Assembly (NCBI GenBank): GCA_036390755.1
Contig: DASWBH010000020.1
Location: 1 to 59,821, forward strand
Source of the DNA: Thermoanaerobaculia bacterium
Lineage (GTDB): Bacteria > Acidobacteriota > Thermoanaerobaculia > Gp7-AA8
Direction: 5' to 3'
Length of the DNA: 59,821 bases
Shown here: one piece after another, positions 13,882 through 56,882 of the stretch
Numbering within the stretch: position 1 is the stretch's first letter
Layout: each line of letters starts with the position of its first letter
The notes under the pieces: generated by a model
What the model was told of the DNA's origin: nothing
Database searches by the model: none
What the model saw: the letters and a program-made list of their open reading frames with translations, nothing else
Made by a program: the position numbers and the translations under genes

Positions 13882-13899
13882 GGCCGGTTACCATGAGTC

Positions 13900-15450: not shown

Positions 15451-15469
15451 CGATCCACTCAGCCTGGTC

Positions 15470-16900: not shown

Positions 16901-16904
16901 CGAA

Positions 16905-19229: not shown

Positions 19230-19244
19230 GTTCGTCCTCCTTCC

Positions 19245-20207: not shown

Positions 20208-20314
20208 ACGCGCTCCTTTGCTCGACGAGGGACGTTCCGTTGCGGTGATATGGTAACTGGCGAAGCGAACTTGAGTCAGCAAAGACGTATAGCGTTCTTG
20301 AGAGGAGATTCGAG

Positions 20315-41670: not shown

Positions 41671-42264
41671 CTGATCAAACGCTACGACCGCGCTTACTTC
41701 GACAAGTGGTACCGAAGCCGCTCGCATCGGGTGCACGAGCAGGGCGATGTTCGCCGGAAAGTCGCGCTTGCCGTCTCAACCGCCGAGTACTTTCTCCGCC
41801 GGCCGATCGAAGACGTTCTTGACATCGGGTGTGGCGAAGGTGCGTGGCTGAAGCATCTGCGCGCGCTGAGACCGCGCGCGATGTACGCCGGGATCGACTC
41901 GAGCGATTACGTTGTTGAACGATTCGGCGCCGAGCGCAACATCAGGAAAGGTTCGTTCTCCGATCTGCGAAAGTTCCACGGCTCGTTCGATCTCGTCGTC
42001 TGCGCAGACGTGCTGCACTACATTGGCGATCGCGAGCTGCAGCGCGGCATCTCGCATCTCGAGCGACTCACCGACGGAATCGCGTTCATCGAGATTCTGA
42101 CGACCGGGGACGATATCGTCGGAGACACGGAAGAACTGATCCGCCGTCCGGCGGAGTGGTACCGGCAACTGTTCGAGCGAGCGGGATTCGTGCAGGCGGG
42201 CCCGTATTGCTGGTTGCCGGAGTCGATGCACGACGTGGCGGCGGAGCTCGAGATCGTCCGCTAA
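41671..42264 (+). CDS. Class I SAM-dependent methyltransferase (probable CTG start)
   Basis: VLDIGCGEG, FDLVVCADVLHY; frame open back to 41647 and encodes YDRAYFDKWY upstream of the tracked start. Confidence 0.8.
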   Translation: MIKRYDRAYFDKWYRSRSHRVHEQGDVRRKVALAVSTAEYFLRRPIEDVLDIGCGEGAWLKHLRALRPRAMYAGIDSSDYVVERFGAERNIRKGSFSDLRKFHGSFDLVVCADVLHYIGDRELQRGISHLERLTDGIAFIEILTTGDDIVGDTEELIRRPAEWYRQLFERAGFVQAGPYCWLPESMHDVAAELEIVR

Positions 42265-44945
42265 TACGCGATGCGTCGCGTCGGCGGCCGCGGCACCACG
42301 GCCTCGATTTTCACGCGCGCGTCGACGATCATCGCGCCGTGCTCGAGCACCTTCAGCGGGTTGATGTCGAGCTCGCGGATCTCCGGACAGACTTCGAGAA
42401 GCATGGAGACCCGCAGGATGACGTCTTTCAGCGCTTCCTTGTCCGACTTCGGAGAGCCGCGGTAGCCGTCGAGCAGACGCGAGAATCGAACTTCGCGGAC
42501 CATGTCATCGGTGTCGGCATCGCTCAGCGGATGGATGCGGAACGAGATGTCGCCGAGAAGCTCGACGAGAGTGCCGCCGGCGCCGTAGACGACGACATGG
42601 CCGAACGTCGGGTCCTCGGTCGCGCCGATCATCACTTCCACTCCGCCCGGAATCATCTGCTGCACGATCGCGCCGGTCATGCTCTCGCTGAGGCGGCCCT
42701 GCATCTCGAGGTAAGCCTCGCGGACTTCTCGTTCGTCCTGCAGCGAGAGCTTCACACCGCCCGCTTCGGTTTTGTGCAGCAGAGTCGGACCTTGCGCCTT
42801 GAGCACGACGGGGAAACCCATGCGCATGGCGGCCTCCACCGCCTCGTACACGCTGCCGACTCGTTCGACCAGCGCACTCGGAATGTTGGCGGCCAGTAAC
42901 AGCGCATGGACATCGAGCGCGTCGAGCCAGCCACCACCCGCCGTGAGCTTGCGATCGACGATCGTGCGCATCTGATCGCGGTCGATATCGTCATAGAGGA
43001 TTCGGGAGCCGACCGGACGCCGCCGCCACTCCGCGTAATTCGTCGCCCGCGCCAGCGCTTTCACGGCGCGTTCGGGGAACGGGAACGAAGGCACGGGGTT
43101 CAGCGCGGCGGGCATGCGCTGCGCGGCGCTCATGAACGTCGCCATCATCGTCTTGCCGTTGGAGTCGGCCGCGCATCGCCGCACGGCCTGCGCAACGGCA
43201 AGCGCCTCGGTCGCGAACACCGGGATGTAGATGATCATCAGCGAGTCGACGTTCGGATCGTCGAGCAGAAGCCGCATCGCGCGGCCGTATTGTTCCGCCG
43301 AAGCGCTCGCGATCATGTCGACGGGATTGCCGACGCTGGCCGCAGCCGGCAGAAACGATCGCAACTCCGCGGTCGTCGCTTCGGAGACTTGCGCGAGCGT
43401 GAGTCCGTTGGCCTCGCACGCATCGGCGGCGAGGATGCCCGGCCCGCCCGCGTTCGTCAGAAGTGCCACGCGGGGGCCGCGCGGCTGCGGCTGATTCGCG
43501 AGCAAGGCAGCAACATCGAACAGCTCCTCGAGCGTGTCCGTGCGGATGATGCCGGCCTGCCGGAACAGATCGCCGACGATCGCATCGCTCGTCGCGAGCG
43601 CGCCGGTGTGCGACGACGCGGCGCGAGCGCCACCCGTCGAACGGCCGGCTTTCACCGCGATGATCGGTTTGCGCTTGGCGACCCGCCGAGCGATCTCGCC
43701 GAACTTCCGAGGATTTCCGAAGCTCTCCAGATACAGCAGCATCACGTCCGTCTTCGGATCCTCGGCCCAGTACTGGATGAGGTCATTGCCCGAAACATCG
43801 GCCTTGTTGCCGACGGAGATGAATGTCGAGAAGCCGATGTTCAGCGTGCGTGCGTAATCGAGAATCGCCAGTCCGAGAGCACCGCTCTGGCTCGACATGG
43901 CGACGTTGCCGCGCGGCGGAAAGATCGAGGAGAACGTCGCGTGCATGTTCACGGCCGGATCGGTGTTGATCACACCCATGCAGTTCGGACCGACCATGCG
44001 GATGCCCGCGGCGCGCACTTTGTCGACGAGGCGGCCCTCGGCTTCGCGGCCGGCTTCACCCGTTTCGCCGAAGCCGGCGGTGATGACGACGACGGCGCCG
44101 ACACCCTTCGTGACGCACTCATCGATGATGTTCTCGACATTCTCTGCGGGGACGACGATGACGCCCAGGTCGATCGGTCCGGGAACGTGACTCACCGACG
44201 CGAACGCCGGGATGCCGTCGATCTCGACCGCCTTCGGATTGATCGGGTAGAGCGCGCCGTGGAAACCGGTCGTGCGCAGGTTGCGCAGAATCTCGTAACC
44301 GATCGTGCCGGGACGGCGGCTCGCACCGACGACCGCGATGGAGCGCGGCTCGAAAATCGACTTCATCGACGCGTACGCCGCCTTTTGCGATCGCTCCGCA
44401 GCTTTGTCCTGGAATTCTTCCGTCGCCGCGATCGGGAAGGAGACGTGGACCGCGCCGTCGGAGGAGCGGCTCTTCACGTCGAAACCGGAGAGCAGAAAGA
44501 CGTCGAGCATCTTCTGGTTCTCCGGCAGCGTCTCGGCGCGGAACTCATCGATGCCGTGTGTGCGCGCGATGTCGGCAAGCTTCTGCATCAGATGCGTGCC
44601 GATGCCGAAGCCCTGTGCCCGGTCCGCAATCGCGAACGCCACCTCGGCGATGCGCGGATCGCGCCGCGAGCGGAAGTAGTGCGCGATTCCGGCCAGCGAG
44701 CCGCCGAGCTCACCGACCACGCCGAACTCGCCGACGTAATCGACGGTGGTCGGGGAATCGTGAACCGCCGACTCCGGCGTGCGCACGTCGAAGAAGCGCA
44801 TGTAGAGGCTGTCCTTCGACATGCCGCGATAAAAGTCGAGCAAAGCGGCGCTGTCCTCCGGCCTCACCGGACGGATGTGCAGCGTGCGCCCGTTGCGCAG
44901 AACGACGTCGGATTCGAAGTGGGCCGGATAAGCGGCTGCGGTCAC
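42261..44945 (-). CDS. N-terminal GNAT fused to ADP-forming acyl-CoA synthetase domains (Pat/PatA-like)
   Basis: AEVAFAIADRAQGFGIGT; GPNCMG, SQSGALG, SVGNKAD, AASSHTGAL, NAGGPG, ELDINPL. Confidence 0.9.
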   Translation of the reverse strand: MTAAAYPAHFESDVVLRNGRTLHIRPVRPEDSAALLDFYRGMSKDSLYMRFFDVRTPESAVHDSPTTVDYVGEFGVVGELGGSLAGIAHYFRSRRDPRIAEVAFAIADRAQGFGIGTHLMQKLADIARTHGIDEFRAETLPENQKMLDVFLLSGFDVKSRSSDGAVHVSFPIAATEEFQDKAAERSQKAAYASMKSIFEPRSIAVVGASRRPGTIGYEILRNLRTTGFHGALYPINPKAVEIDGIPAFASVSHVPGPIDLGVIVVPAENVENIIDECVTKGVGAVVVITAGFGETGEAGREAEGRLVDKVRAAGIRMVGPNCMGVINTDPAVNMHATFSSIFPPRGNVAMSSQSGALGLAILDYARTLNIGFSTFISVGNKADVSGNDLIQYWAEDPKTDVMLLYLESFGNPRKFGEIARRVAKRKPIIAVKAGRSTGGARAASSHTGALATSDAIVGDLFRQAGIIRTDTLEELFDVAALLANQPQPRGPRVALLTNAGGPGILAADACEANGLTLAQVSEATTAELRSFLPAAASVGNPVDMIASASAEQYGRAMRLLLDDPNVDSLMIIYIPVFATEALAVAQAVRRCAADSNGKTMMATFMSAAQRMPAALNPVPSFPFPERAVKALARATNYAEWRRRPVGSRILYDDIDRDQMRTIVDRKLTAGGGWLDALDVHALLLAANIPSALVERVGSVYEAVEAAMRMGFPVVLKAQGPTLLHKTEAGGVKLSLQDEREVREAYLEMQGRLSESMTGAIVQQMIPGGVEVMIGATEDPTFGHVVVYGAGGTLVELLGDISFRIHPLSDADTDDMVREVRFSRLLDGYRGSPKSDKEALKDVILRVSMLLEVCPEIRELDINPLKVLEHGAMIVDARVKIEAVVPRPPTRRIAY

Positions 44946-44966: not shown

Positions 44967-45380
44967 TCAGGCGATCGCGACTTCCTGGCCTGTCACCTGG
45001 AAGTAGAATTTCGCGAGCTGTTCGTTCGTGAAGTCACTCCAGCCGCGGCACGTGTCGCGCACGGTCTGCTGGACGTCGCACGCGATCGGAAGCTCATAGA
45101 CCTCCTGCTGCGCGAGCTGCCAGTCGTTGGCGATCACTTCGAGCTGCTCGCGGTTCAGGTCCGGACGTTTCTTCACGATCCAGTCGTAGCGCCGGCGCAG
45201 ATCTTCGTCGCCGTACTGATTGAAGCCATTGCAGAAAATGCCGCGTTCCGCTGCGACTTTGCAGATCGAGTTTTCGATGTCGGTGAACTTCGCCAGCGCG
45301 TTGCGAAGTCTGATGACGAGCTCGGTCCGCGTGATCGTCTCGAGCTTCGGTGCCGACTGTTTCTTGAGAGGTTTGGGCAT
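44967..45380 (-). CDS. Hypothetical protein with two C-x9-C-x-G-[FW] repeats
   Basis: GGAGG RBS; CKVAAERGIFCNGF and CDVQQTVRDTCRGW. Confidence 0.7.
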   Translation of the reverse strand: MPKPLKKQSAPKLETITRTELVIRLRNALAKFTDIENSICKVAAERGIFCNGFNQYGDEDLRRRYDWIVKKRPDLNREQLEVIANDWQLAQQEVYELPIACDVQQTVRDTCRGWSDFTNEQLAKFYFQVTGQEVAIA

Positions 45381-45449
45381 AGCGCCTCCGTCTTCCTCGG
45401 ATGATGCTACCGAGGCAAACCGGGAGCGGTATGACGGCTCACATGCCGG

Positions 45450-45465
45450 TGTGATGAACAACACA
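45450..45465. promoter_or_regulatory. CRP-like box TGTGA-TGAACA-ACACA
   Basis: 9/10 consensus in a divergent intergenic region. Confidence 0.7.
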
Positions 45466-45500
45466 CCACCCTGTGGGTCGCGGAGAGTTCACTAGCCGCC

Positions 45501-46727
45501 ATGTTGAAACCGGTGGAGCTCGAGATCGAACTCTTCTGCCGCGGCATGCGCATCGGCGAGTCATGCCACGCCGGTGAAGTCGGCCGCAGGATCACCCGCA
45601 CGCGGGCCGGCCTCGGTTCGGGTCTCGAGATCGTCATCCCCGGCCCGAAGGACATCTGGGTCAACGTTCCGGTGATCGAGCGGTTCGCGCAGCACTCGGC
45701 TTTCACGCTTCACGAGACGAGCGACGGCTTCTTCGTCGCCGACGTGCGAAACGGCATCGAATACCCGGTTTCGATTCCGGCTGAACCGGCGTGGTATTCG
45801 CGGAACACCTCCTCCGACGTTCCGATGAGCCGCATCGGCGTCCTGCAAGGGAACTACCTCGGCATCTACGTTTCGGCGCGATGTCTGTACTGGAGCTCGA
45901 CGATCGACGCGGCGTGCAAATTCTGTACGACGGGAAAGAACGTCGGGACCGCTGAGGAGTCGCGCAAGCGGGTCGAAGACGTCGTCGAGGTCGCGCGCGC
46001 GGCGCGCGATGAGTCAGGCGCGATCTTCACGCATTTCAACACCGGCTATCACTACGAGGATCGTGACGAACGCGAGAACATGCACGGCCTGCACATGTGC
46101 GAACCGTACGTGCGCGCCGTTCGCGAACACGTCGGCGGATTCATCGGCGTGCAGGCTGTTCCCGTGCCGCGGCGGAAGTTCTACGAATATGACTCGCTCA
46201 TCGAAGCGGGCACCGACCACTTCTCGTTCTGCTATGAGTTCGAGGATCCGGAAGTCTTCGCACGCATCTGCCCGGGCAAAGCGCAGACGCTCGGGCAGAG
46301 CGCGTTTTTCGAGGCGATGGAGTACACCGCGAAAAAACTCGGACGCGGCCGCGTATCGGGCGAGATCATCGCCGGAGTGGAATCGATCGAGGCGACGAAG
46401 CGCGGGATCGACCGGATCGTCGACGCCGGAGCGTTCCCGACCGTGTGCATCTTCCGTCCGACGATCGGCAGCGAGATGGAAAACGATCCGCCTCCCGATC
46501 CCGAACCGATGCGCGAAGTCTTCGCCTACCTTCACGAAAGCTGCCGTCGCGCCGGTCTGCCGGTCGGCATCCTTCCCATCGAAGTGTCGCTCGTCGTTCA
46601 GCCGGAAGAGACCGCAGCGCTCGTCGAGCCGACGTTCGCCGGCCACGCGTACCACTTCAAGAACTGGACACTGCGCCAGCTCGCGAAGCCGTACGTCGCC
46701 TGGAAGAAACGGCCCCAGGCCGCGTAA
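45501..46727 (+). CDS. Radical SAM protein with expanded C-x10-C-x2-C motif (MSMEG_0568-like)
   Basis: CLYWSSTIDAACKFC; CPGK; GEIIAGVE; PTVCIFRPTIGS. Confidence 0.75.
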   Translation: MLKPVELEIELFCRGMRIGESCHAGEVGRRITRTRAGLGSGLEIVIPGPKDIWVNVPVIERFAQHSAFTLHETSDGFFVADVRNGIEYPVSIPAEPAWYSRNTSSDVPMSRIGVLQGNYLGIYVSARCLYWSSTIDAACKFCTTGKNVGTAEESRKRVEDVVEVARAARDESGAIFTHFNTGYHYEDRDERENMHGLHMCEPYVRAVREHVGGFIGVQAVPVPRRKFYEYDSLIEAGTDHFSFCYEFEDPEVFARICPGKAQTLGQSAFFEAMEYTAKKLGRGRVSGEIIAGVESIEATKRGIDRIVDAGAFPTVCIFRPTIGSEMENDPPPDPEPMREVFAYLHESCRRAGLPVGILPIEVSLVVQPEETAALVEPTFAGHAYHFKNWTLRQLAKPYVAWKKRPQAA

Positions 46728-47709: not shown

Positions 47710-48171
47710 CTAGTGATCGCGCTTCACCAGCGCTGACGAGAGCCGCGACACGCGCCCGCCCGCGATCGACGTGAATCGCGCCAGCGCGCCGAACTCGCGG
47801 TTCGTCATGCGGCGTCCGAGGTCGGATTGAGCAAGGATGCCGACGAGGGTGCCGTCGGCGAGGATCACCGGCAGGTGATGGATCGCGTTCTCCTCCATCA
47901 GCTCGATCGCTTTCTCGATCGGCTCGTCGGCCTCGACGGCGATCACCGGTCTGGTCATGCAGGCATCCGCACTCAAACCGGACGCGTCGAGCCGCGGCGC
48001 CACACCGCGCAGCGCGATGTCGCGATCCGTGATGATTCCGATGAGCTTTCCCGACTCGGTCACCGGAATCGCGGCGCAGCCGTGGTCGGTCATGAGCTGC
48101 GCGACCAGACGAAGGCTGGTCTTCCGGTCGCAGGCAGCGGGGTTGGGCGTCATAGCATCGCGAACTCTCAT
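47710..48171 (-). CDS. CBS-pair protein
   Basis: VRDAMT, GIITDRDI, CMT, HHLPVI, GILAQSDL. Confidence 0.9.
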   Translation of the reverse strand: MRVRDAMTPNPAACDRKTSLRLVAQLMTDHGCAAIPVTESGKLIGIITDRDIALRGVAPRLDASGLSADACMTRPVIAVEADEPIEKAIELMEENAIHHLPVILADGTLVGILAQSDLGRRMTNREFGALARFTSIAGGRVSRLSSALVKRDH

Positions 48172-48238
48172 GGGAGCCTCCACCCGGCAGTCTTGTTCCG
48201 GGCACAGCGCTACGCAGCGGCGGCCGGTGCGAGGCTGG

Positions 48239-48254
48239 TGTGACCGGCGACACA
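48239..48254. promoter_or_regulatory. CRP-like box TGTGA-CCGGCG-ACACA
   Basis: 9/10 consensus, centred about 76 nt from both divergent starts (CBS, hypC). Confidence 0.7.
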
Positions 48255-48323: not shown

Positions 48324-48617
48324 ATGTGTCTCGGCGTGCCCGGCCAGATTGTCTCGATTCAAAAGAACGTTGCGTCTGTTGAATTCTGGGGAACGCGGAA
48401 GAGCGTCAGGCTCGTGGGTTTGACCGACCACGTGCTCCCCGGCGACTACATCATCGAACACGCAGGCTACGCGGTGCGGCGCATTCCCACCGCGGACGTG
48501 GCCGATACTCTCGCGCTCTACGAAGTGCTCCTCACTGAAGCGGGAGAGGATCCCATCGCGCGCGACATCATCGACGAGCTTTCAGAGGAGCGCGAGCTCG
48601 ACGAAGTGCTCGTCTGA
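48324..48617 (+). CDS. hypC: HypC/HupF-family chaperone with acidic C-terminal extension
   Basis: MCLGVPGQI N-terminus, GDYIIEHAGYA; GGAGG RBS. Confidence 0.85.
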   Translation: MCLGVPGQIVSIQKNVASVEFWGTRKSVRLVGLTDHVLPGDYIIEHAGYAVRRIPTADVADTLALYEVLLTEAGEDPIARDIIDELSEERELDEVLV

Positions 48618-48623
48618 TTTGAA

Positions 48624-49454
48624 ATGCGCGACTACGAGTTCCGCCCGACACGGATTGCTGTCCTCACGTCTTTTTCAGCGCCCGGTATTACCGATCTTCT
48701 GGCAAGCTCCTCACGCGGAACGGCGTTCGAGATCGCTGGCGTGATCTCGTCCGAGACTTCGCTACAGGCGCAGGACGTGATCGAAGCGGCGGGTGTTCCC
48801 GTCGTCATGCATCCAATCCGCCGATTTCATTCGGACAATCGCCTGCCGCTGCGCAACCTGCACGCGCGCGTGGAGTACGACTATAAAACCGCCGAGATTC
48901 TTCAAGGCCTGAAGGCGGAGTACGTCATTGCGGCGGGCTACCGGTTCATCATGACCGCGCCGCTGCTTTCCGAGTTCCCGCGGCGCATCATCGCGATCCA
49001 GGACGCTGATCTGACGGGAGTCGATGTGCATGGCGGACGTCCGCACGCCGGCCTCGACGCCGTCCGCGATGCGATTCTCGGCGGTGCGGAGTCGACCCGC
49101 TCCACCGCGTATTTCGTGACCGAGGACGTCGGCCGCGGGCCGTTGTTCATGGTCAGCGCGCGCTATCCGGTCGCGCCGCTCGCGCGCGAAGCGCTGGCGC
49201 GCGGCGCGTACCAGGAGCTAGACACATACGCGGCGCTGCACCGCTGGTGGATGCGCGTGTCCGCGTTCGGCGAGATGATGCCGCGCATCGCGGAGATCGT
49301 AGCCGCCGGTACGATGCAGATCGTCGGCGACGTCGTCTGGATCGACGGCGTTCCCGGTCCCTGCCGCATGGGCGAAGCCGCTTCGATCTGCGCCGATCGA
49401 CAGGCGCCCCTCGGTCCGGGCGTTCCTGAGAGCTGCCCCTACATCAAGCGATAA
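48624..49454 (+). CDS. PurN-like formyltransferase-fold protein with substituted catalytic residues and Cys-containing tail
   Basis: RIAVLTS, AAGYRFIM, IAIQDADL (vs NIHPSLL), YFVTEDVGRGP (vs HFV..LDxGP). Confidence 0.75.
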   Translation: MRDYEFRPTRIAVLTSFSAPGITDLLASSSRGTAFEIAGVISSETSLQAQDVIEAAGVPVVMHPIRRFHSDNRLPLRNLHARVEYDYKTAEILQGLKAEYVIAAGYRFIMTAPLLSEFPRRIIAIQDADLTGVDVHGGRPHAGLDAVRDAILGGAESTRSTAYFVTEDVGRGPLFMVSARYPVAPLAREALARGAYQELDTYAALHRWWMRVSAFGEMMPRIAEIVAAGTMQIVGDVVWIDGVPGPCRMGEAASICADRQAPLGPGVPESCPYIKR

Positions 49455-49674
49455 CGCGCCGGCACGGGCAGAAATCGCCACTCGCTGGTCGGCACATCCG
49501 CACGTTCACGTGTTTCGATCGCGCGTGCCCGCACTGCCCGCACATCGCCGCGGATTCGCCTGCCGTGAATCCGGTGCAGACGCACGGGTAGTCTTCCGAC
49601 GGGTAATGAATCATCACCTCGCAGATGTTGGCGATGTGGTGCTCGACCTCGGTGTGCGGACAGGGATCGGTCAT
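49444..49674 (-). CDS. Small Cys/His-rich protein (76 aa, 9 Cys, 6 His)
   Basis: Two C-x-H-x4-H-x5-C...C-x-C repeats; GAGG upstream; fills the gap. Confidence 0.65.
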   Translation of the reverse strand: MTDPCPHTEVEHHIANICEVMIHYPSEDYPCVCTGFTAGESAAMCGQCGHARSKHVNVRMCRPASGDFCPCRRVIA

Positions 49675-49690: not shown

Positions 49691-49706
49691 TGTGCGCGAA
49701 GTCACA
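49691..49706. promoter_or_regulatory. CRP-like box TGTGC-GCGAAG-TCACA
   Basis: 9/10 consensus between divergent genes. Confidence 0.65.
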
Positions 49707-49785: not shown

Positions 49786-50787
49786 ATGGAAACGAACCGT
49801 GCCCATATCGTGGTGTGGGAGTTGACCCGCGCATGTAAGTTGTCCTGCACCAATTGCGCGATCGGAGCCCTGCCCCGGCGCGCGCCGATGGAGCTTTCAA
49901 CATACGAAGCATACAAAACCATCGACCAGGTCGTCGCGCTCAGGCCGGAAGAACTGATCCTGACCGGCGGCGATCCGCTCGAGCGGGCAGACATTTACCA
50001 GTTGATCGATTACGCGCGGCGCCGCGGCCTGCGGCCCTCGATGATGGTCAGTCCGACCGCGCTTCTGACCGGCGCCTCTGTCGGAAAGCTGAAGAGAAAC
50101 GGCCTGGCGCGCCTCATCGTCAGTGTCGATTCGTCCACGCCCGACCGCCACGATTCGATCCGCGGCGCCCACGGACAGTTCGCGGCCACGCTGCTGGCGA
50201 TCCGCTGGGCGCGCACGGCCGCGCTGCCGGTCGAGGTGAACACTCTCGTCTCGCATCGCAACATGGGCGACCTCGACTCCCTCGCCTCCCTTCTTGGTGA
50301 TCTCGGCGTCGAGCGCTGGAGCGTTTACTTCGTCGTTCCTATCGGCGGATCCAAGCATCTCGAAACGCTGTCGCCGGAGGAATCGGAACGGGTCCTCGAG
50401 AGGCTGCAGACCATGCGCACAAAGGTGCCGTTCACGATCCGGACGTTTGAAGCGCCGCAATACCGTCAGATCGAGCGCATGGACACGCTCTTCATCTCGC
50501 ATACCGGCGAAGTCAGCATCAGCCCGTTCCTGCCGGTGACGGCGGGCAACATCCGCTATCAGCCGCTGTCGTCGCTCGATCGCTCGAGCGATCTGCTGAT
50601 CGCTCTGCGCGATGATTCGAACCTCAAGGGAAAATGCGGCCGGTGCGAGTACCGCCGCACGTGCGGCGGGTCCCGGGCACGCGCGTACGCGATGACCGGC
50701 GACGTATTTGCCGCCGACCCGCTCTGCAGCTATCAGCCCGGAACGGCCACCGGTACGCCGCTGGTCGATCGCGGAGGAGCGGCGTGA
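49786..50787 (+). CDS. Radical SAM/SPASM protein, Ahb/NirJ-like (BA_1875-type)
   Basis: VWELTRACKLSCTNC, LTGGDPL, CGRCEYRRTCGGSRARAYA...DPLC. Confidence 0.85.
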   Translation: METNRAHIVVWELTRACKLSCTNCAIGALPRRAPMELSTYEAYKTIDQVVALRPEELILTGGDPLERADIYQLIDYARRRGLRPSMMVSPTALLTGASVGKLKRNGLARLIVSVDSSTPDRHDSIRGAHGQFAATLLAIRWARTAALPVEVNTLVSHRNMGDLDSLASLLGDLGVERWSVYFVVPIGGSKHLETLSPEESERVLERLQTMRTKVPFTIRTFEAPQYRQIERMDTLFISHTGEVSISPFLPVTAGNIRYQPLSSLDRSSDLLIALRDDSNLKGKCGRCEYRRTCGGSRARAYAMTGDVFAADPLCSYQPGTATGTPLVDRGGAA

Positions 50788-51818
50788 CGGTTTACGATCC
50801 TCGAGCGACGCCGTGGCAGATCGATGAGAGCGAGTTCTATGAGCTCGACGATCGCCGGGCGCAGCTCGAGTTTCTGGTCCGCTACGCGATCCTCGCGCCG
50901 TCGGGCCACAACACCCAGCCGTGGTCGTTCAACATCGTCGGCGACGGAATCGAGATCTTCGCCGACTTTACGCGCAGGCTGCCGGTCGCCGATCGTGGGA
51001 ATCGCGAGCTCCTGATGAGCATCGGCGCCGCGATCACGAACCTTCGCGTCGCAGCGGCTCACTTCGGATACGAGACGACGGCTCTCTATCACCGCGGCGT
51101 GGATGACGATCCGGCCGTCGCGCGGGTCGCACTGCGGGAAACCTGCTCGGCTGATTCGTCGCTGCGGAAGCTGTTTCCGGCGATCGTCGCACGTCGCACG
51201 AACCGGCAGCCGTTCGATGGTCGTCCGATTGACGAATCGGTGCTCGCGGCGGTGTGCGACCTCATCGAGGAGCAGCCGGAAATGATGCGCTTCGTCCAGC
51301 CGCACGATCGCGCGCGAGCCGCGGATCTCGTTGCCGAGGGCGATCGCCAGCTCATGACGAATCCCGCGTTCCGGCAAGAAGTCGCGGCATGGATGCGGCC
51401 GAACGAAACGTTCGCCGGCGACGGCGTCTGCGGCGACGCGTTCGGAATCCTCGGCCCGGTCTCCGCGCTGGGCTCGTGGCTCGTGCGCAGCGTCGACCTC
51501 GGTCCGGCGCAGGCGAAGCACGATCGCGATCTGGCTGCGAACGCATCCGGTCTGATCGTGATCACTGGCGATGACGACCGTCGGTCCCTGATCCGCTCCG
51601 GCGAAGCGCTGGAGCGGCTCCTGCTGCTCCTCACGACCCTCGGAATCCAGTACTCGTTCCTCAACCAGCCGGTCGAAGTCGAGCAGTTGCGCAACGAGCT
51701 CTGGTCGATGATCCGCTCGCCGAAGCCGCCGCAGTTGATGGTCCGTATCGGCTACTCGACGCCTGTGCGCCGCCCGATGCCGCGCCGGCCGATCGAGACC
51801 GTTCTGGCGTCATCCTGA
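50784..51818 (+). CDS. Acg-family FMN-binding nitroreductase-like protein
   Basis: AILAPSGHNTQPW, SIGAAITNL, RRTNR, YSFLNQPVE, PQLMVRIGY, PRRP. Confidence 0.88.
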   Translation: MTVYDPRATPWQIDESEFYELDDRRAQLEFLVRYAILAPSGHNTQPWSFNIVGDGIEIFADFTRRLPVADRGNRELLMSIGAAITNLRVAAAHFGYETTALYHRGVDDDPAVARVALRETCSADSSLRKLFPAIVARRTNRQPFDGRPIDESVLAAVCDLIEEQPEMMRFVQPHDRARAADLVAEGDRQLMTNPAFRQEVAAWMRPNETFAGDGVCGDAFGILGPVSALGSWLVRSVDLGPAQAKHDRDLAANASGLIVITGDDDRRSLIRSGEALERLLLLLTTLGIQYSFLNQPVEVEQLRNELWSMIRSPKPPQLMVRIGYSTPVRRPMPRRPIETVLASS

Positions 51819-51852: not shown

Positions 51853-54800
51853 TCACTTCAGTGCCGCGAGGTAGCTGTACATCTTCCACCGCGCGTCCAC
51901 ATCGTGCTGCGCCGCGGCGATGAGCTCCTGCGCCTCTTCCGCATCGCCTTTCAGCAACTGGTTGAACCGGTTCTCGGTCTTGAGGAACTGCTCGACCGGC
52001 ATCTTGATGCCGCGCGAATCGAGCTGCAGCGGGTTCTCGCCGGTCGCGTTGCGATCGGGGTTGTAGCGGTACAGGAGCCACTGACCGGCGTCGACCATCG
52101 CCTTCTGATGCTGCAGGCCCGACGCAATGTCGATTCCATGCGCGATGCAGTGGCTGTACGCGATGATCAGCGACGGTCCGTCGTACGCCTCAGCCTCGAT
52201 GAAGGACTTGAGCGTGTGCTCATCTTTCGCGCCGAGAGCAACGCTGGCGACATAGACGCTGCCGTACGTCATCGCGATCAGTCCCAAGTCTTTCTTGCCG
52301 GCAGGCTTGCCGCCCGCCGCGAATTTCGCGACCGCGCCGCGCGGTGTTGCCTTGGACGCCTGCCCTCCGGTGTTCGAGTAGACCTCGGTGTCGAGGACCA
52401 GGATGTTCACGTTCCTGCCGCTGGCGAGGACGTGGTCGAGTCCACCGAATCCGATGTCGTATGCCCATCCGTCCCCGCCGACAATCCAGACGCTCTTCTT
52501 CACGAGGTAGTCCGCCAGCATGAGCAGCTGCTGCTCATCGGTCGGGTCATCCTTGTGCATCCGCGTGGCGAGCTCGGTGCGGCGCAGGCGCGACTTCAGA
52601 AGCTCGACGCGCTCGCGCTGCTCGGCGATTTCCGCTTCGTCCTTCTGCTCGCACTCGACGATCGCCTCGACCAGGCTCTCCCCGAGTTGCGGAGCGAGCT
52701 TCTTCGCGAGGTCGGTCGCAAAGTCGCGCTGCTTGTCGATCGAGACGCGGAAGCCCAGCCCGAATTCGGCGTTGTCTTCGAACAGTGAGTTGCACCACGC
52801 CGGCCCGCGGCCGTCGGCGTTCGTGGTCCAAGGAGTCGTCGGCAGATTGCCGCCGTAGATCGACGAGCACCCGGTCGCGTTGGCAACGACCACGCGATCG
52901 CCGAAGAGCTGCGTCATCAGCTTCAGGTACGGCGTTTCGCCGCAGCCGGTGCACGCGCCGGAGAACTCGAACAGTGGTTGCGCGACCTGCACGCTGCGGA
53001 TCAGGTTCGGAATGATCGTGCGGCGATCGAGCTCCGGGATGCCCAGGAAGTAATCCCAGTTCTTCGCCTCAGGTTCGCGGAGCGGCGCCTGCGGCTGCAT
53101 GTACAGCGACTTGCGCGTGGGAGCGGCCTTGCTCTTCGCCGGGCAGACATCGACGCACAGCGTGCAGCCGGTGCAGTCCTCCGGTGCAACCTGGATCGTG
53201 TAGGCGAAACCTTTCCACTCTTTGTGAATCGGCTGCAGCGACTTGAACGTCGGCGGCGCCGTATGCGTCAGCGCTTCGTCGTAGACCTTGATGCGGATCG
53301 CGGCGTGCGGACACACCATGGCGCACTTGCCGCACTGAATGCAGCCTGACGTATCCCACACCGGGATTTCCTGCGCGAGATTGCGCTTCTCGAATTTCGT
53401 CGTGCCCGGAAGGAATGTGCCGTCGCACGGGAGAGCGCTGACTGGCAGATCGTCGCCGCGGCCGGCGAGCATCACACCGAGCGGAGTCCCGTCGATCACG
53501 CTCGCTGCGTGGAACGGCTCGACCGCGACCGTGGCCGGCAGGGCAACTTCGTGCAACGCGGCCAGCGCGTTGTCGACAGCCTTGAGGTTCTTCTCGACGA
53601 TCGCGTCACCCTTCGAGCCGTATGTCTTGCGAATCGATTTGCGGATCGCTTCGAGGGCTTCGTCGGCAGGCATGACGTTCGCCAGCTTGAAGAAGCAGAC
53701 CTGCATGATCGTGTTGATGCGCGAGCCCATGCCGCTTTCGCGCGCGACTTTGGTCGCGTCGATGACATAGAGGTGCGCCTTCTTCTCGATCAGCTCGCGC
53801 ATCACGCGCGGAGGAATGGCCTCCTCGCTCCCGTTGAACAGGAACGTGCCGCCCGGAACGAGCTCCTTGACAACGGCGTAACGCTCGATCAGCGACGGCT
53901 GATGACAGGCGACGAAGTTCGCTTCGCCGATCAGATACGGCGCGTGAATCGGCCGCGGACCGAAGCGGAGGTGCGACACGGTCGCCGCGCCGGACTTCTT
54001 CGAGTCGTACACGAAGTAGCCCTGCGCGAAGTGTCCGGCGTCGCCGAGAATCTTGCAGGAGTTCTTGTTCGCACCAACGGTCCCGTCAGCGCCAAGGCCG
54101 TAGAACATCGCCCGGACGACGTCGTTCGCTTCGATCGAGAACGAAGGATCGTAGTCGATGCTGTTGTTCGTGATGTCGTCGTGGATGCCGACGACGAAGT
54201 GATTTCGCGGAGTGTCCTTCTTGATCTCGTCGAAGACACCCTTGACCATCGCCGGCGTGAATTCCTTCGACGACAGTCCGTACCGCCCGCCGACGACTCT
54301 CATCAGCCGTTGCGCTTCGAACAGCGCGGTGACGACGTCGAGATACAGCGGCTCGCCGTTGCTGCCCGGCTCTTTTGTGCGGTCGAGGACCGCCAGCGTC
54401 CTGGTCGTCGCCGGAATCGCGTTGACGAAGCCGGAGATATCGAACGGCCGATACAACCGGACCTTCAACACGCCGACCTTCTCGCCTCGCGCGGTGAGCG
54501 CGTCGACTGTTTCCTGCACCGTCTCGCAGCCGGAGCCCATCAGCACGATCACGCGATCTGCGTTCGGCGAGCCGTAGTACTCGTACGGCTTGTAGGTGCG
54601 GCCGGTGACGGCGGCGAATTTCTCCATCGCCACGCCGACGTGCTTCGCGCATTCGGCGTAGAACGGGTTCGATCTCTCTCGCGCCTGGAAGAAGACATCG
54701 GGATTCTGCGCGGTGCCGCGGACGACGGGGTGATCCGGCGACAGTGCGCGCGAGCGGTGCTCGAAAACGAGGCGGAGATCGATCATGGCGTGCATCTGCT

Positions 54801-55368
54801 CATCTGTGAGCACCACGATCTTCGAGACCTCATGCGACGTGCGGAAGCCGTCGAAGAAGTGGACGAACGGGATGCGCGATTCGAGCGTCGCCGAGTGCGC
54901 GATCAGAGCGAGATCGTGCGCCTCCTGGACGCTCGCGGAAGCCAGCATCGCCCAGCCGGTGGAGCGCACGGCCATGACGTCGGTGTGGTCGCCGAAGATC
55001 GACAGCGCGTGCGTTGCGATCGTTCGCGCCGCGACGTGCAGCACGGCAGGCGTCAGCTCGCCGGCGATCTTGAACATGTTCGGGACCATCAATAGCAGTC
55101 CCTGGGAGGACGTGAAGGTGGTGGCGAGGGCACCCGTCTGCAGGGCTCCGTGGATGGCGCCGGCGGCGCCCCCTTCGCTCTGCATCTCGATGACCGAAGG
55201 GATCGTGCCCCAGAGGTTCGGGCGCTTCTCGGCGGCCCAAGCGTCCGACCACTCGCCCATCGGCGACGAGGGGGTGATCGGGTAGATGGCGATGACTTCG
55301 TTCAGGGCATACGCGACGCGCGCGACGGCTTCGTTGCCGTCGAGCATGGCGTATTTTTCTGCAGACAT
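51853..55368 (-). CDS. nifJ: Pyruvate:ferredoxin (flavodoxin) oxidoreductase, single chain
   Basis: IYPITPSS, EMQSEGGAAG, CIQCGKC/CTGCTLC ferredoxin motifs, FSGACTGCGE, GGDGWAYDIG. Confidence 0.97.
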   Translation of the reverse strand: MSAEKYAMLDGNEAVARVAYALNEVIAIYPITPSSPMGEWSDAWAAEKRPNLWGTIPSVIEMQSEGGAAGAIHGALQTGALATTFTSSQGLLLMVPNMFKIAGELTPAVLHVAARTIATHALSIFGDHTDVMAVRSTGWAMLASASVQEAHDLALIAHSATLESRIPFVHFFDGFRTSHEVSKIVVLTDEQMHAMIDLRLVFEHRSRALSPDHPVVRGTAQNPDVFFQARERSNPFYAECAKHVGVAMEKFAAVTGRTYKPYEYYGSPNADRVIVLMGSGCETVQETVDALTARGEKVGVLKVRLYRPFDISGFVNAIPATTRTLAVLDRTKEPGSNGEPLYLDVVTALFEAQRLMRVVGGRYGLSSKEFTPAMVKGVFDEIKKDTPRNHFVVGIHDDITNNSIDYDPSFSIEANDVVRAMFYGLGADGTVGANKNSCKILGDAGHFAQGYFVYDSKKSGAATVSHLRFGPRPIHAPYLIGEANFVACHQPSLIERYAVVKELVPGGTFLFNGSEEAIPPRVMRELIEKKAHLYVIDATKVARESGMGSRINTIMQVCFFKLANVMPADEALEAIRKSIRKTYGSKGDAIVEKNLKAVDNALAALHEVALPATVAVEPFHAASVIDGTPLGVMLAGRGDDLPVSALPCDGTFLPGTTKFEKRNLAQEIPVWDTSGCIQCGKCAMVCPHAAIRIKVYDEALTHTAPPTFKSLQPIHKEWKGFAYTIQVAPEDCTGCTLCVDVCPAKSKAAPTRKSLYMQPQAPLREPEAKNWDYFLGIPELDRRTIIPNLIRSVQVAQPLFEFSGACTGCGETPYLKLMTQLFGDRVVVANATGCSSIYGGNLPTTPWTTNADGRGPAWCNSLFEDNAEFGLGFRVSIDKQRDFATDLAKKLAPQLGESLVEAIVECEQKDEAEIAEQRERVELLKSRLRRTELATRMHKDDPTDEQQLLMLADYLVKKSVWIVGGDGWAYDIGFGGLDHVLASGRNVNILVLDTEVYSNTGGQASKATPRGAVAKFAAGGKPAGKKDLGLIAMTYGSVYVASVALGAKDEHTLKSFIEAEAYDGPSLIIAYSHCIAHGIDIASGLQHQKAMVDAGQWLLYRYNPDRNATGENPLQLDSRGIKMPVEQFLKTENRFNQLLKGDAEEAQELIAAAQHDVDARWKMYSYLAALK

Positions 55369-55439: not shown

Positions 55440-55455
55440 TGTGACGAACGTCACT
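55440..55455. promoter_or_regulatory. CRP-like box TGTGA-CGAACG-TCACT upstream of PFOR
   Basis: 9/10 consensus, centre about 80 nt upstream of the start. Confidence 0.75.
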
Positions 55456-56066: not shown

Positions 56067-56786
56067 CTAAACGCTGACCATGCTCTCGAGCTGCGGCTTG
56101 TTCGTAACGAACATGCTCGAGCCCTTCACGTCGATGATCTTCTTGCGCTTGAAATCGCTGAGCAGGCGCGTCACCGTCTCACGCGTGGTGCCGATCATCT
56201 GCGCGATCTCTTCGTGCGTCAGAAGCACCTTCAGGCGGACGCCCTTCGTGGTCTGCTCGCCGCCGCGGTCGCACCAGTCGAGGAGCAGGCGGGCCAGCTT
56301 CTCGGAGGTCGTCGCCGACAGGCCGAGCGAACGGATCTCGCGCTGCGCGGAGTGATACTTCTCACTCAGCTGCTGCGCCGTATGCATGCATGCCTCGGCA
56401 TGACCGCCCAGAAACTTCAGGAAGTCCTCGCGTTTGATGAAGTTCAGCTGCGATGGCTCGATCGTCTCGGCAGAAACTTCGTACGGCTTGCCGAGGATCG
56501 TGGCGCTCGCGCCGAGAACCTCACCCGGCTCGGCGATCTTCACGATGAGCGTCTTGCCTTCTGTGGAAGAAGTCGTGAGCTTTGCCCGACCACTGCACAG
56601 AATGAACACCCCGCGCGGCTCCTCGCCTTCGACGAACAGCAGCGATCCTTTCGGATAGAGACCGGTGAACTTCACCGAGTCCAGGGCATTGACGGTTCCA
56701 TCGGACATGTTGCAGAACAAGCGCTCGGCTCGGACCCGGCACTCACTGCAGTTGTATTCGACTTCGAGGTTGTAGGGCGACGGCAT
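56067..56786 (-). CDS. Crp/Fnr regulator with N-terminal Cys cluster and CRP-type recognition helix
   Basis: CSECRVRAERLFC; LFVEGEEPRG; LTHEEIAQMIGTTRETVTR. Confidence 0.92.
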   Translation of the reverse strand: MPSPYNLEVEYNCSECRVRAERLFCNMSDGTVNALDSVKFTGLYPKGSLLFVEGEEPRGVFILCSGRAKLTTSSTEGKTLIVKIAEPGEVLGASATILGKPYEVSAETIEPSQLNFIKREDFLKFLGGHAEACMHTAQQLSEKYHSAQREIRSLGLSATTSEKLARLLLDWCDRGGEQTTKGVRLKVLLTHEEIAQMIGTTRETVTRLLSDFKRKKIIDVKGSSMFVTNKPQLESMVSV

Positions 56787-56866: not shown

Positions 56867-56882
56867 TGTGACAGTCATCACA
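56867..56882. promoter_or_regulatory. Perfect CRP box TGTGA-CAGTCA-TCACA
   Basis: 10/10 consensus upstream of the Crp/Fnr gene. Confidence 0.8.

Follow-up and report, generated by a model that had tools for sequence, protein, structure and literature searches.

The DNA analysed here (the window, that is, the whole 59.8-kb stretch) carries a gene for a HypC-family protein followed by a gene for a formyltransferase-fold protein, which appears to have lost its enzymatic chemistry and to have gained a C-terminal tail with three cysteine residues. We call the two products HypC* and FT*. The pair is kept in a family of 65 non-redundant loci with the Cys tail, mostly from soil Acidobacteriota and chiefly from Thermoanaerobaculia, and it is nearly always accompanied by a radical-SAM gene. 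We tentatively propose, at somewhat less than an even chance, that these proteins form an iron-centre scaffold or carrier that was co-opted from hydrogenase maturation and is switched on under anoxia. The features of the locus are listed in Table 1.

Table 1. Predicted genes, protein segments and regulatory boxes of the window
Feature	Position	Strand	Remarks
GNAT domain fused to ADP-forming acetyl-CoA synthetase	42261..44945	-	TIGR02717 528 bits, plus Pfam domains
Conserved protein, ~137 aa	44967..45380	-	divergent from variant radical-SAM gene; recurrent in 22 loci; no family match
Box	45450-45465		upstream of variant radical-SAM gene
Variant radical-SAM protein (NF045502)	45501..46727	+	178 bits vs cut-off 125; in 23/30 long loci
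CBS-pair protein	47710..48183	-	divergent from hypC; PF00571 100.8 bits; recurrent neighbour
CRP/FNR-type box TGTGACCGGCGACACA	48239..48254		divergent CBS/hypC promoter region, ~78 bp upstream of hypC ATG
HypC-family chaperone (HypC*)	48324..48617	+	97 aa; N-terminal Met-Cys, conserved His, extended C-terminal helix ADTLALYEVLLTEAGEDPIA, acidic tail
FT*, PurN-fold pseudo-formyltransferase (predicted)	48624..49454	+	276 aa; Ala124/Gln126/Gly170 replace Asn106/His108/Asp144; invariant His206, Trp209
FT* C-terminal tri-cysteine tail	49362..49451	+	C247-x8-C256-x14-C271; WIDGVPGPCRxG...C...SCP[FY]; candidate metal/Fe-S site
smallCys, conserved small Cys/His-rich protein	49444..49674	-	~70 aa; convergent with FT*, divergent from radical-SAM gene
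CRP/FNR-type box	49691..49706		divergent smallCys/radical-SAM promoter region
Radical SAM/SPASM enzyme, NirJ/AhbD clade	49786..50787	+	333 aa from Met at 49786
Acg-family (Rv3131-like) FMN oxidoreductase	50784..51818	+	NF047509 294 bits vs cut-off 199
Pyruvate:ferredoxin oxidoreductase (PFOR)	51853..55368	-	1171 aa; Pfam architecture of orthologues
Box	55440-55455		upstream of PFOR gene
Crp/Fnr-family regulator	56067..56786	-	FNR-like cysteines C13-x2-C16-x8-C25, C133; candidate reader of boxes
Box	56867-56882		own box of Crp/Fnr-family regulator gene

The HypC-family protein

HypC carries Fe together with CO2 or Fe(CN)2CO, and we know of HypC-family proteins solely from the [NiFe]-hydrogenase maturation machinery. 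HypC* matched the Pfam model HupF_HypC (PF01455) with 67.5 bits (cut-off 28.5), and its score of 57.7 bits with TIGR00074 was also above the curated threshold of 48. In a search of the PDB, the closest solved structure was T. kodakarensis HypC (2z1c). The protein starts with MCLGVPG, and the conserved His lies within IIEHAGYAV. In the related loci, the tail past EAGEDP comprises 18 residues and carries a net charge of -6 (medians). The N-terminal Cys, the HAGY His and the acidic tail described in the sequence-only reading were therefore all recovered. The C-terminal extension is shared with HypCs from true hyp operons (Vicinamibacteria, Gemmatimonadales).

The relatives of HypC* fall into over 120 clusters with identities of 60-83%. 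Their N-terminus is Met-Cys in 66 loci and Met-Ser in two, the latter being two independent assemblies of one lineage (L017 and L103), and the motif GDY..xHxG was found in 67 of 68 HypC sequences. Judged by these family hallmarks, HypC* is a true HypC-family protein.

The formyltransferase-fold protein and its cysteine tail

FT* was matched by Formyl_trans_N of Pfam with 41.8 bits. With the PurN model TIGR00639 it reached 45.8 bits where 150.1 are required, which is below equivalog level. The AlphaFold2 model of FT* (pLDDT 86.6) resembled PurN structures in Foldseek (3auf, E 5e-16; 1cde, TM 0.85 normalised to target), and all top matches were PurN with TM values of 0.8-0.85 in the same normalisation. 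By sequence and by structure the best matches were PurN and PurU; ArnA and FMT ranked 43rd and lower, and no HypX entry was present among the top 50 structural matches. Pfam found no crotonase domain in the protein itself.

HMMER alignments with PurN chains placed riiaiqdadl of FT* opposite rilnihpsll, giving Asn to Ala and His to Gln, and vgrgp opposite vdegp, giving Asp to Gly. The affected positions correspond to Asn106, His108 and Asp144, the catalytic residues of PurN. A PurN fold with Ala, Gln and Gly at these positions, and a tail reading PCRMG...ICA...SCPY, had been seen in the letters beforehand; the alignments, the AlphaFold2/Foldseek result and the presence of C247, C256 and C271 confirmed both.

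Among the 65 non-redundant members of the family, the Asn position is never Asn, and the Asp position is Gly in 37, Ala in nine and Asp in one. In 15-19 members (about 30%), a deletion has removed the catalytic loop. The His is kept by 41 of the 46 members that have the loop, and its change to Gln is particular to the lineage of the window. Much of the Rossmann half is often missing; what is conserved is the C-terminal half with His206, Trp209 and the Cys tail, and the three tail Cys, His206 and Trp209 are each invariant (65/65). Since Asn and Asp are lost, often along with the loop and a large portion of the Rossmann half, FT* is by all appearances a pseudo-enzyme without formyltransferase chemistry. 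The erosion of the half that would hold the folate site argues against any C1 or folate chemistry.

In the isolated model, the tail has pLDDT values below 50, which would be compatible with metal- or partner-dependent folding. A HypC*-FT* fusion model, whose alignment rows came from FT only, gave pLDDT values of 28-42 for the HypC part and 44-50 for the tail.

Conservation of the gene pair

The hypC* and ft* genes lie on the same strand in the same frame, and the open reading frames confirmed the 6-nt gap noted earlier. Spacings of 2, 0, -4 and 6 nt were found across the loci compared; in most gene-called loci the two genes are 0-6 nt apart or overlap, and in L070 they are separated by 142 nt. 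By script, HypC was found directly upstream of FT* in 54 of the 65 loci. The other 11 comprise one locus missed by the script filter (L005), nine contigs that end too early, and one locus (L086) where HypC may be lost at the contig end, 484 nt upstream. The co-occurrence of HypC with the formyltransferase, which the sequence-only reading proposed to examine, is well kept.

The dN/dS values were 0.08-0.40 for HypC*, 0.13-0.39 for FT*, 0.07-0.23 for the radical-SAM gene and 0.04-0.24 for smallCys. That reading had also considered that the pairing might not be conserved or that both genes might be decaying. The 65 loci and the dN/dS values speak for the opposite on both points, and these sequence comparisons indicate that the pair is kept by purifying selection and is not decaying. 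In a soil metatranscriptome, contigs covered smallCys, the 5' end of the radical-SAM gene and PFOR; none covered hypC*-ft*.

Absence of hyp genes at the locus and origin of FT*

phmmer searches with queries from a related hyp cluster detected no HypD, HypE, HypF, HypB, HypA, maturation protease or NiFe large or small subunit in the 59.8-kb window, and the only match was NuoD with 14.3 bits. The Complex1_49kDa/30kDa/20kDa genes at 885-6081 were considered as a group-4 hydrogenase; this was rejected, since NuoD, with its GPQHPSTHG motif, is devoid of the NiFe cysteines. The window also gave no crotonase match. HypD, HypE, HypF, HypB, crotonase and the NiFe large subunit were found within 10 kb in none of the 65 loci. 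The earlier statements that the window holds no hypABDEF or hydrogenase gene and that this is not a standard hydrogenase-maturation locus are in agreement with these results. Among the recurrent neighbours, clustering revealed neither a conserved ferredoxin or hydrogenase nor any other evident client. When a HypD of Vicinamibacteria was compared with 5.8 billion proteins, the best 120 matches were all at least 79% identical and of Vicinamibacteria type. What looks like an extra gene past FT* in the short-form loci is a shadow reading frame, caused by a cold-shock protein gene that lies on the opposite strand.

Relatives of FT* that have no tail and keep Asn, His and Asp sit in hypC-hypD-hypE-FT-crotonase operons at nine loci. 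This type was found in MAGs of Vicinamibacteria, Gemmatimonadales and Actinomycetes, always inside hyp operons, and FT* matched these proteins with 121-210 bits (138 bits for that of L018), compared with 46 bits for the PurN model TIGR00639. In a neighbour-joining tree the tail clade was monophyletic (46/46), and the tail, hyp-operon and GxQ types grouped together (58/58) against other PurN-like proteins. Adjacent crotonase genes or a hyp-operon location were found in none of the 65 tail-clade loci, the window included. The tree and the scores indicate that FT* descends from a PurN-type formyltransferase that is located in hyp operons in sister lineages.

HypX makes CO aerobically from formyl-THF by way of formyl-CoA, using a formyltransferase domain. 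From its gene content, the hyp-operon pair of formyltransferase and crotonase looks like a two-gene analogue of HypX, which suggests that a two-protein form of HypX-like CO synthesis may exist in soil bacteria. The comparison with HypX in the sequence-only reading held in part: the intact sister group does sit with a crotonase in hyp operons, but the relative is PurN-like and not of the FDH/FMT-like type of HypX. The N-domain of HypX is FDH/FMT/ArnA-like, with perfectly conserved His74 and Asp109 (PMC6802093).

The radical-SAM gene and the small Cys/His-rich protein

In 56 of the 57 loci that could be assessed (eight could not), FT* is directly followed by a radical-SAM gene of the NirJ/AhbD clade, and a conserved Cys/His-rich protein of about 70 aa is often present. 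The earlier term two-component was therefore too narrow. The enzyme has a CxxxCxxC motif and the C-terminal motif KGKCxRCEYRxxCGGSRARAYAxTGDxFAxDPLC. It scored 342 bits with TIGR04053 (cut-off 395) and 252 bits with the model of AhbD, its best characterised match (TIGR04545, cut-off 500). AhbD, NirJ and TIGR04053 models thus gave 250-340 bits, whereas peptide-maturase models gave less than 100. A PDB sequence search returned only PqqE and BlsE, with 49 bits.

FT* and the radical-SAM gene overlap by 4 nt in L003 and are 3-4 nt apart in L014 and L015. As these lineages share 40% identity, the two genes appear to form one operon rather than a loose cluster. In the lineage of L003, the enzyme is a 256-aa version without the SPASM part, and the trio is kept. 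In L008 and L070, the pair stands without the radical-SAM gene. The smallCys protein matched no Pfam or NCBIfam family; in the alignment of 12 loci its pattern is CCxH..EH..C.EV.HYPSEDYPC.C.G..C..C.H....H...R.C.P..G..C.C, and many loci are without it. In the literature searched, we found no description of the pairing of HypC* with FT* or of the radical-SAM family.

Gene neighbourhood and predicted low-oxygen regulon

The palindrome TGTGA-N6-TCACA, with at most one mismatch, occurs six times in the window against 0.79 expected; all six matches are intergenic and lie at 45.4-56.9 kb. A box upstream of hypC was also present in eight related loci, and the density was 2.8 boxes per 20 kb in core loci versus 0.33 in unrelated loci. 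A sigma-70 promoter scan of the region gave no match. The box is common to the hypC*-ft* operon, PFOR, the ADP-forming acetyl-CoA synthetase, the second radical-SAM gene, the Acg-type oxidoreductase and the CBS protein. The variant radical-SAM protein gave no match in a PDB sequence search. The GTG start of the Acg-family gene overlaps the stop codon of the radical-SAM gene (GTGA), and from this start the protein has 344 aa, the length of two orthologues (L001, L002). Hsp20 is also encoded in the neighbourhood, and the organism encodes many multihaem cytochromes. The neighbourhood regulon appears to respond to low oxygen.

Discussion

In the scaffold or carrier function that we tentatively favour, either iron or an Fe-S cluster would be bound by the Cys3 tail of FT*, and a further ligand might come from His206, from the N-terminal Cys of HypC* or from both. 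HypC*-FT* would act in the manner of the HypC-HypD scaffold, in which a chaperone and a Cys-rich partner hold the iron centre during building and handover. The part of the radical-SAM enzyme would be to produce or alter a ligand or cofactor, and the set, induced at low oxygen, would serve an anaerobic metalloenzyme. This client might be a [NiFe]-hydrogenase whose genes lie elsewhere, or it might be a target yet to be recognised. The Ser2 lineage is hard to fit with Cys2 as an obligatory ligand. In addition, the radical-SAM enzyme, being closest to the tetrapyrrole-modifying AhbD and NirJ, may do no more than take part in haem synthesis without oxygen, as another member of the regulon.

Several other explanations should be weighed. 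HypC* might be the cell's ordinary hydrogenase chaperone, or one of several, with FT* as an accessory, the hypABDEF and hydrogenase genes being scattered elsewhere in the genome. The retention of all HypC hallmarks above curated cut-offs, the C-terminal extension shared with true hyp-operon HypCs and the derivation of FT* from a hyp-operon gene are in its favour, and [NiFe]-hydrogenases are encoded by published marine MAGs that were assigned to Thermoanaerobaculia at the time (PMC8528874). However, the sister FT always occurs in hyp operons whereas none of the 65 loci has hyp or hydrogenase genes within 10 kb; the module is fixed beside the radical-SAM gene inside the PFOR/acetyl-CoA synthetase regulon, the CO-making chemistry is lost from FT*, and hydrogenases are reported to be fewer in those classes of Acidobacteriota that prefer soil (PMC11245096). 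We consider this explanation doubtful, though to be taken seriously. Somewhat less probable still is a purely regulatory co-location, in which the radical-SAM protein would be a coprohaem decarboxylase-type enzyme and HypC*-FT* would have an unrelated role, for example redox, O2, CO or NO sensing (sensing had also been suggested in the sequence-only reading) or iron buffering in anoxia. The match to AhbD, the multihaem cytochromes, the ability of the pair to stand alone and the hypoxia-regulon look of the neighbourhood (Acg, CBS pair, Hsp20, FNR-like regulator, PFOR) would fit such a situation, but FT* overlaps or closely adjoins the radical-SAM gene in distant lineages, and neither HypC* nor FT* has a signalling output domain.

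SPASM-domain enzymes commonly modify Cys-rich peptides encoded beside them. The radical-SAM/SPASM enzyme could accordingly introduce thioether or other cross-links, or a protein-derived cofactor, into the FT* tail or smallCys, with HypC* as the chaperone. The tail is disordered, terminal and invariant, as such a substrate might be, and smallCys and the radical-SAM gene diverge from one shared box. The low scores with peptide-maturase models, the SPASM-less enzyme of the L003 lineage and the many loci without smallCys nevertheless make this improbable. As for a decaying remnant of a broken hyp locus, the lost catalytic residues and the deletions in the N-terminal half of FT* could be read in that way. 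The reading frames are intact in 65 loci, however, dN/dS is well below 1, five non-catalytic residues including the newly gained Cys3 tail are invariant, and HypC is more conserved than FT*. The tests refute decay, which is almost certainly not the explanation.

A more specific possibility, which we regard as a long shot, is that the Fe-CO unit of the [NiFe]-hydrogenase cofactor is built or delivered by the module in a route that needs no oxygen. In this case the iron would be held by HypC* together with FT* as a Cys3 scaffold, and the diatomic ligand would come from the radical-SAM enzyme, as it does from HydG for [FeFe]-hydrogenase. The anaerobically induced operon would replace the formyl-THF/crotonase (HypX-like) route of the sister hyp operons. 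Alternatively, an organometallic or Fe-S cofactor might be assembled for an enzyme that is yet unrecognised. The source of the CO ligand under anoxic conditions is an open question in a 2025 review (PMC12134894). A module feeding hydrogenase maturation would bear on this question, and the Fe-CO route, if true, would provide a concrete candidate for the anaerobic source. If the scaffold function that we favour holds, it would be a new use of the HypC chaperone and a clear case in which the fold of an enzyme was put to new use for carrying a metal site. Within soil Acidobacteriota, a widespread group carries a HypC paralogue that has moved out of the hydrogenase context and has been joined to a Cys-tailed pseudo-enzyme, as predicted for FT*.

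Comparison with known systems

HypC* resembles HypC, HybG and HupF in its PF01455 and TIGR00074 matches, its OB-fold relatives (2z1c, 3vyr, 2ot2) and its Met-Cys and His. It differs in having no adjoining hypD, hypE, hypF or hydrogenase gene (65 loci, 10 kb scanned), in its longer C-terminal helix and acidic tail, in its pairing with FT*, and in the Ser N-terminus of one lineage. FT* has the fold of PurN and PurU (E 5e-16) and detectable sequence similarity to them, but its score is 45.8 against 150, Asn106 is lost, Asp144 is kept in 1/65, and a 30-residue Cys3 tail is added. Its nearest relatives, in a common clade, are the hyp-operon PurN-type formyltransferases, whose HypCs share the C-terminal extension. 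Those proteins, unlike FT*, have intact Asn, His and Asp, no Cys tail and a crotonase gene next to them, and they are embedded in hypC-hypD-hypE..hypF/B clusters with NiFe subunits. Like HypX, FT* is a formyltransferase-type protein tied by evolution to hyp genes; it is, however, PurN-like, has lost the Asp equivalent (in the window also the His), is neither fused to nor partnered with a crotonase and is encoded away from hyp clusters.

The downstream enzyme shares CxxxCxxC and the SPASM cysteines with AhbD, NirJ and TIGR04053 and scores best with these models. It stays below all curated cut-offs, adjoins no tetrapyrrole pathway genes, is coupled to HypC*-FT*, and has a SPASM-less version in one lineage. 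The HypC-HypD complex, the scaffold for Fe(CN)2CO assembly, is our hypothetical and purely functional working analogy for the pair. FT* is no homologue of HypD: HypD has a CX14CX6CX16C cluster and the motifs CGXH and GPGCPVC, whereas FT* has a PurN fold, no PF01924 match and three Cys, with HypE and HypF absent nearby. In both systems, a small HypC is co-encoded with a larger alpha/beta protein that bears a cluster of Cys at its C-terminus.

Results

Conservation of the HypC-FT* pair

The sequence-only reading had described a hypC gene followed by ft*, whose product FT* has a PurN fold, Ala/Gln/Gly at the catalytic positions and a Cys tail; domain models, HMMER alignments and AlphaFold2/Foldseek showed this description to be accurate. 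Judged by its sequence, the upstream product is a genuine HypC-family protein. It scored 67.5 bits with PF01455 (cut-off 28.5) and 57.7 bits with TIGR00074 (cut-off 48), and its nearest solved structures were HypC proteins (2z1c, 3vyr, 3d3r and 2ot2). It begins with MCLGVPG and carries the conserved His in EHAGYAV, followed by a longer helix, shared with the HypCs of the FT-containing hyp operons described below, and an acidic tail. In one lineage, represented by two independent assemblies (loci L017 and L103), MSLGLPG replaces MCLGVPG. To our knowledge, the N-terminal Cys, here Ser, is regarded as essential throughout the HypC family.

Searching 5.8 billion proteins gave about 100 clusters related to FT*, nearly all metagenomic, the named ones being Thermoanaerobaculia. 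The first three contexts viewed (51%, 48% and 40% identity) all had the order HypC-FT*-radical SAM. Scanning of GTDB species genomes and JGI metagenomes, with all ORFs scored by phmmer, yielded 65 non-redundant loci whose FT* ends in a C-x8-C-x14-C tail (hereafter the tail clade). When 1.84 billion representatives were searched with a profile, only 67 matches fell below 1e-30, of which roughly 15-20 have the Cys tail; the tail clade is therefore small.

HypC was detected by script directly upstream of FT* in 54 of the 65 loci, and nine contigs end too early to judge. In L005 it lies within a long stop-to-stop ORF and was hence missed by the script filter; in L086, with only 484 nt upstream, it was not detected and may be cut by the contig end. 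A radical-SAM gene follows FT* in 56 loci, is missing from one (L008/L070) and was not assessable in eight. The hypC-ft* gaps in gene-called examples were 2, 0, -4 and 6 nt, and 142 nt in L070; in L003 the FT* and radical-SAM genes share 4 nt, and in L014 and L015 they abut. No HypD/E/F/B, crotonase or NiFe large subunit was found by phmmer in the flanks of the 65 loci. Nei-Gojobori dN/dS over seven locus pairs was 0.08-0.40 for HypC, 0.13-0.39 for FT*, 0.07-0.23 for the radical-SAM protein and 0.04-0.24 for smallCys, a Cys/His-rich neighbour. Two outcomes had been named beforehand as fatal to the proposed module: a pairing that is not conserved, and two genes decaying as remnants of a hyp locus. 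The pairing is conserved, and these ratios refute decay of both genes.

Fold, catalytic residues and tail of FT*

FT* scored 41.8 bits with Formyl_trans_N and only 45.8 bits with the PurN equivalog model (cut-off 150). Its AlphaFold2 model, built with 20 homologues, had a pLDDT of 86.6 and a pTM of 0.85. Foldseek placed PurN first (3auf, E 5e-16; 1cde, target-normalised TM 0.85) and PurU next, with ArnA and FMT much lower; HypX was absent from the top 50 matches. In the HMMER alignments with PurN chains, 'riiaiqdadl' faces 'rilnihpsll' and 'vgrgp' faces 'vdegp'. The only poorly predicted part (pLDDT <50) was the last 30 residues, which contain C247, C256 and C271.

All loci were aligned to the FT* family profile. 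The loss of Asn holds throughout the tail clade and that of Asp in all but one member, whereas only the window's lineage and two others show the His-to-Gln change. His206, Trp209, Cys247, Cys256 and Cys271 each occur in 65/65 tail-clade members, and Thr158 in 63. Much of the Rossmann half, together with the catalytic loop, is gone from many members (170-250 aa), which nevertheless retain the C-terminal half and tail. The former active site is therefore free of constraint and FT* is a pseudo-enzyme; selection is directed at the C-terminal half and the tail.

Residues at the PurN catalytic positions
Position	Window FT*	Tail clade (n=65)	No-tail relatives (n=33)
Asn106	Ala	N 0; A 28, V 8, K 3, S 2, T 2, G 2, I 1, deleted 19	N 27
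His108	Gln	H 41, Q 3, C 1, V 1, deleted 19	H 30
Asp144	Gly	G 37, A 9, E 2, S 1, D 1, deleted 15	D 30

A box-defined regulon

The motif TGTGA-N6-TCACA, a CRP/FNR-type box, occurs six times in the window (at most one mismatch) against 0.79 expected, and no shuffle reached six. All six boxes are intergenic and lie at promoters of one 12-kb gene set (45.4-56.9 kb). The same promoters carry them in 20 related loci, where the density is 2.8 per 20 kb versus 0.33 in unrelated loci. The neighbourhood of hypC-ft* is thus a predicted regulon. The co-regulated set comprises pyruvate:ferredoxin oxidoreductase (PFOR), a GNAT/ADP-forming acetyl-CoA synthetase, two radical-SAM proteins, a CBS-pair protein, and an FMN oxidoreductase of the Acg type encoded from a GTG start that overlaps the stop codon of the radical-SAM gene. 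An Hsp20 gene adjoins the set but lacks a box; in L001 and L002, genes for a GAF histidine kinase and a GerE response regulator are nearby as well. This neighbourhood resembles both the DosR dormancy set of mycobacteria (acr, acg, hrp1) and a pyruvate-to-acetate fermentation branch. Because of the FNR-like regulator, the boxes and this gene content, we infer that the regulon is switched on under oxygen limitation. In a soil metatranscriptome, smallCys, PFOR and the 5' part of the radical-SAM gene were covered by contigs and hypC-ft* by none, which is weak evidence either way.

About half of the loci have smallCys, which sits between the FT* and radical-SAM genes; the conserved protein (pattern CCxH..EH..C.EV.HYPSEDYPC.C.G..C..C.H....H...R.C.P..G..C.C) belongs to no assigned family. 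The variant radical-SAM gene (NF045502, a MSMEG_0568-family relative) forms a divergent pair with the gene for a conserved 137-aa protein in more than 20 loci, and this pair adjoins the GNAT/ADP-forming acetyl-CoA synthetase fusion. In L003, the most divergent lineage, the radical-SAM gene encodes only 256 aa, lacks the SPASM part and has a toxin-antitoxin pair of the DarT/macrodomain type (DarTG-like) after it; directly upstream of hypC lies the gene for a 635-aa protein without a family match.

Coordinates of features in the window and in related loci
Feature	Position	Strand	Remarks
NuoH/D/C/B	885-6081		complex-I-like
NuoC-like and NuoB-like genes	3170-6081	-	PF04060 extensions
Porin and multihaem cytochrome	16905-20282	-	MtrB/PioB type
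137-aa gene and variant radical-SAM gene	44967-46727		NF045502
Box	45450		between 137-aa gene and variant radical-SAM gene
Box	48239		between CBS gene and hypC
hypC	48324-48617		97 aa; same strand and frame as ft*
ft*	48624-49454		276 aa; 6 nt after hypC
smallCys	49444-49674	-	about 70 aa; strand opposite to ft*
Box	49691		between smallCys and radical-SAM gene
Box	55440		upstream of PFOR
Box	55954		upstream of cNMP-binding protein gene
Crp/Fnr regulator	56067-56786	-	C13-x2-C16-x8-C25 and C133, FNR-like arrangement
Box	56867		upstream of Crp/Fnr regulator gene
Hsp20	57628-58104
L003 module	10738-13301
L017 HypC	9555-9896		MSLGLPG
L103 HypC	1200-1541		MSLGLPG
L018 hyp cluster	5520-18950		Gemmatimonadales chromosome
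L112 FT relative	9986-10816		'GxQ' type

Hyp and hydrogenase genes

All window ORFs were searched with proteins of the hyp cluster in L018 (HypD/E/F/B/A, maturation protease, crotonase, formate-THF ligase and NiFe large and small subunits). Matches were found only to HypC, the FT* gene and NuoD (14.3 bits, NiFe large subunit), bearing out the earlier statement that the window has no further hyp or hydrogenase gene. The complex-I-like genes were considered as a hydrogenase and rejected: NuoD lacks the NiFe cysteines, reading GPQHPSTHG with the C-terminus IDIVLGEVDR. Both the NuoC-like and NuoB-like subunits carry a C-terminal PF04060 ('putative Fe-S cluster') extension whose motif begins DC[AT], an unusual addition for complex I subunits; the start of the very long NuoB ORF (636 aa) was probably called too far upstream. 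The remaining window genes encode an H+-pyrophosphatase, a Cu/Zn superoxide dismutase, peptidases, fatty-acid proteins, regulators, and an MtrB/PioB outer-membrane porin adjoining a multihaem cytochrome, which suggests a capacity for extracellular electron transfer in this acidobacterium.

The no-tail relatives scoring best against FT* are located within hyp operons. In L018, formate-THF ligase is followed by hypC-hypD-hypE-FT-crotonase, with hypF, hypB, hypA, a protease and NiFe large and small subunits alongside. The same theme recurs in L016 and L088 (both Vicinamibacteria-type), L102, L118, L125, L116, L134 and L024 (Actinomycetes), the gene order being hypC-hypD-hypE-FT-crotonase or hypC-hypD-FT-crotonase-hypE. 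These FTs retain N/H/D and are PurN-like by sequence, and their crotonase neighbour is a common type of enoyl-CoA hydratase; they are distinct from HypX itself. The arrangement looks like a two-protein HypX analogue from a different formyltransferase subfamily; we found no description of it in the literature.

In a neighbour-joining tree the tail clade (46/46) and the hyp-operon type (9/9) were each monophyletic, and together with a small 'GxQ' type they formed one group (58/58) separate from other PurN-like proteins. The 'GxQ' type (L110, L112 and L113) has Gly-x-Gln at the Asn-x-His site and neither Cys tail nor HypC; in L112, FeoB, an AhbD-like radical-SAM gene and a CoA-binding protein are nearby. 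The simplest history would be that a hypC-formyltransferase pair left a hyp operon, after which the FT gave up its chemistry, parted from the crotonase and acquired the Cys tail.

Discussion

The analysis revealed a closely linked pair of HypC and a pseudo-formyltransferase with three invariant Cys residues (plus His/Trp), located outside hyp clusters in a box-defined regulon, with a radical-SAM gene nearly always next. We found no paper describing such a pair. We tentatively favour, at somewhat less than even odds, a scaffold reading in which the pair would carry an iron centre or hold it in place. The FT* tail would bind iron or an Fe-S cluster, with the N-terminal Cys of HypC perhaps as a further ligand; the pair would act as HypC-HypD does, and the NirJ/AhbD-clade radical-SAM enzyme would make or alter a ligand or cofactor. 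The module would then be a chaperone system built on HypC with a new partner. Counting against the scaffold reading, the N-terminal Cys of HypC is Ser in a real lineage that was assembled twice, the pair once occurs without the radical-SAM gene, and the radical-SAM enzyme may be nothing more than a haem enzyme that works without oxygen.

Ordinary hydrogenase maturation with scattered genes would suit a genuine HypC; the flanks of the tail-clade loci contain none of the hyp partners searched for, and we consider it rather unlikely. Marine MAGs formerly classed in Thermoanaerobaculia carry [NiFe]-hydrogenases (PMC8528874), and fewer hydrogenases are reported for soil-preferring Acidobacteriota classes (PMC11245096). 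It is unlikely, too, that the co-location is purely regulatory, with the radical-SAM gene serving haem synthesis and HypC-FT* serving sensing or iron buffering; the shared boxes agree with this, and the abutting or overlapping genes point to closer linkage. That the radical-SAM enzyme modifies the FT* tail or smallCys is improbable; the invariance of the tail cysteines speaks for it, and the lack of smallCys in about half of the loci speaks against it. An anaerobic radical-SAM-dependent route to an Fe-CO unit, or the building of some cofactor as yet unrecognised, is an improbable extension of the scaffold reading; the anaerobic source of the CO ligand is stated to be unresolved (PMC12134894).

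In HypX the equivalent His74 and Asp109 are perfectly conserved and required for formyl transfer to CoA (PMC6802093). FT* cannot act as HypX does. It departs from HypX in fold subtype and in context, it lacks the Asp and any crotonase part, and it is unrelated to HypD. It has its fold in common with PurN but falls outside that family by score and catalytic residues. Sequence and motifs place the window HypC, for its part, in the HypC family; its context does not.
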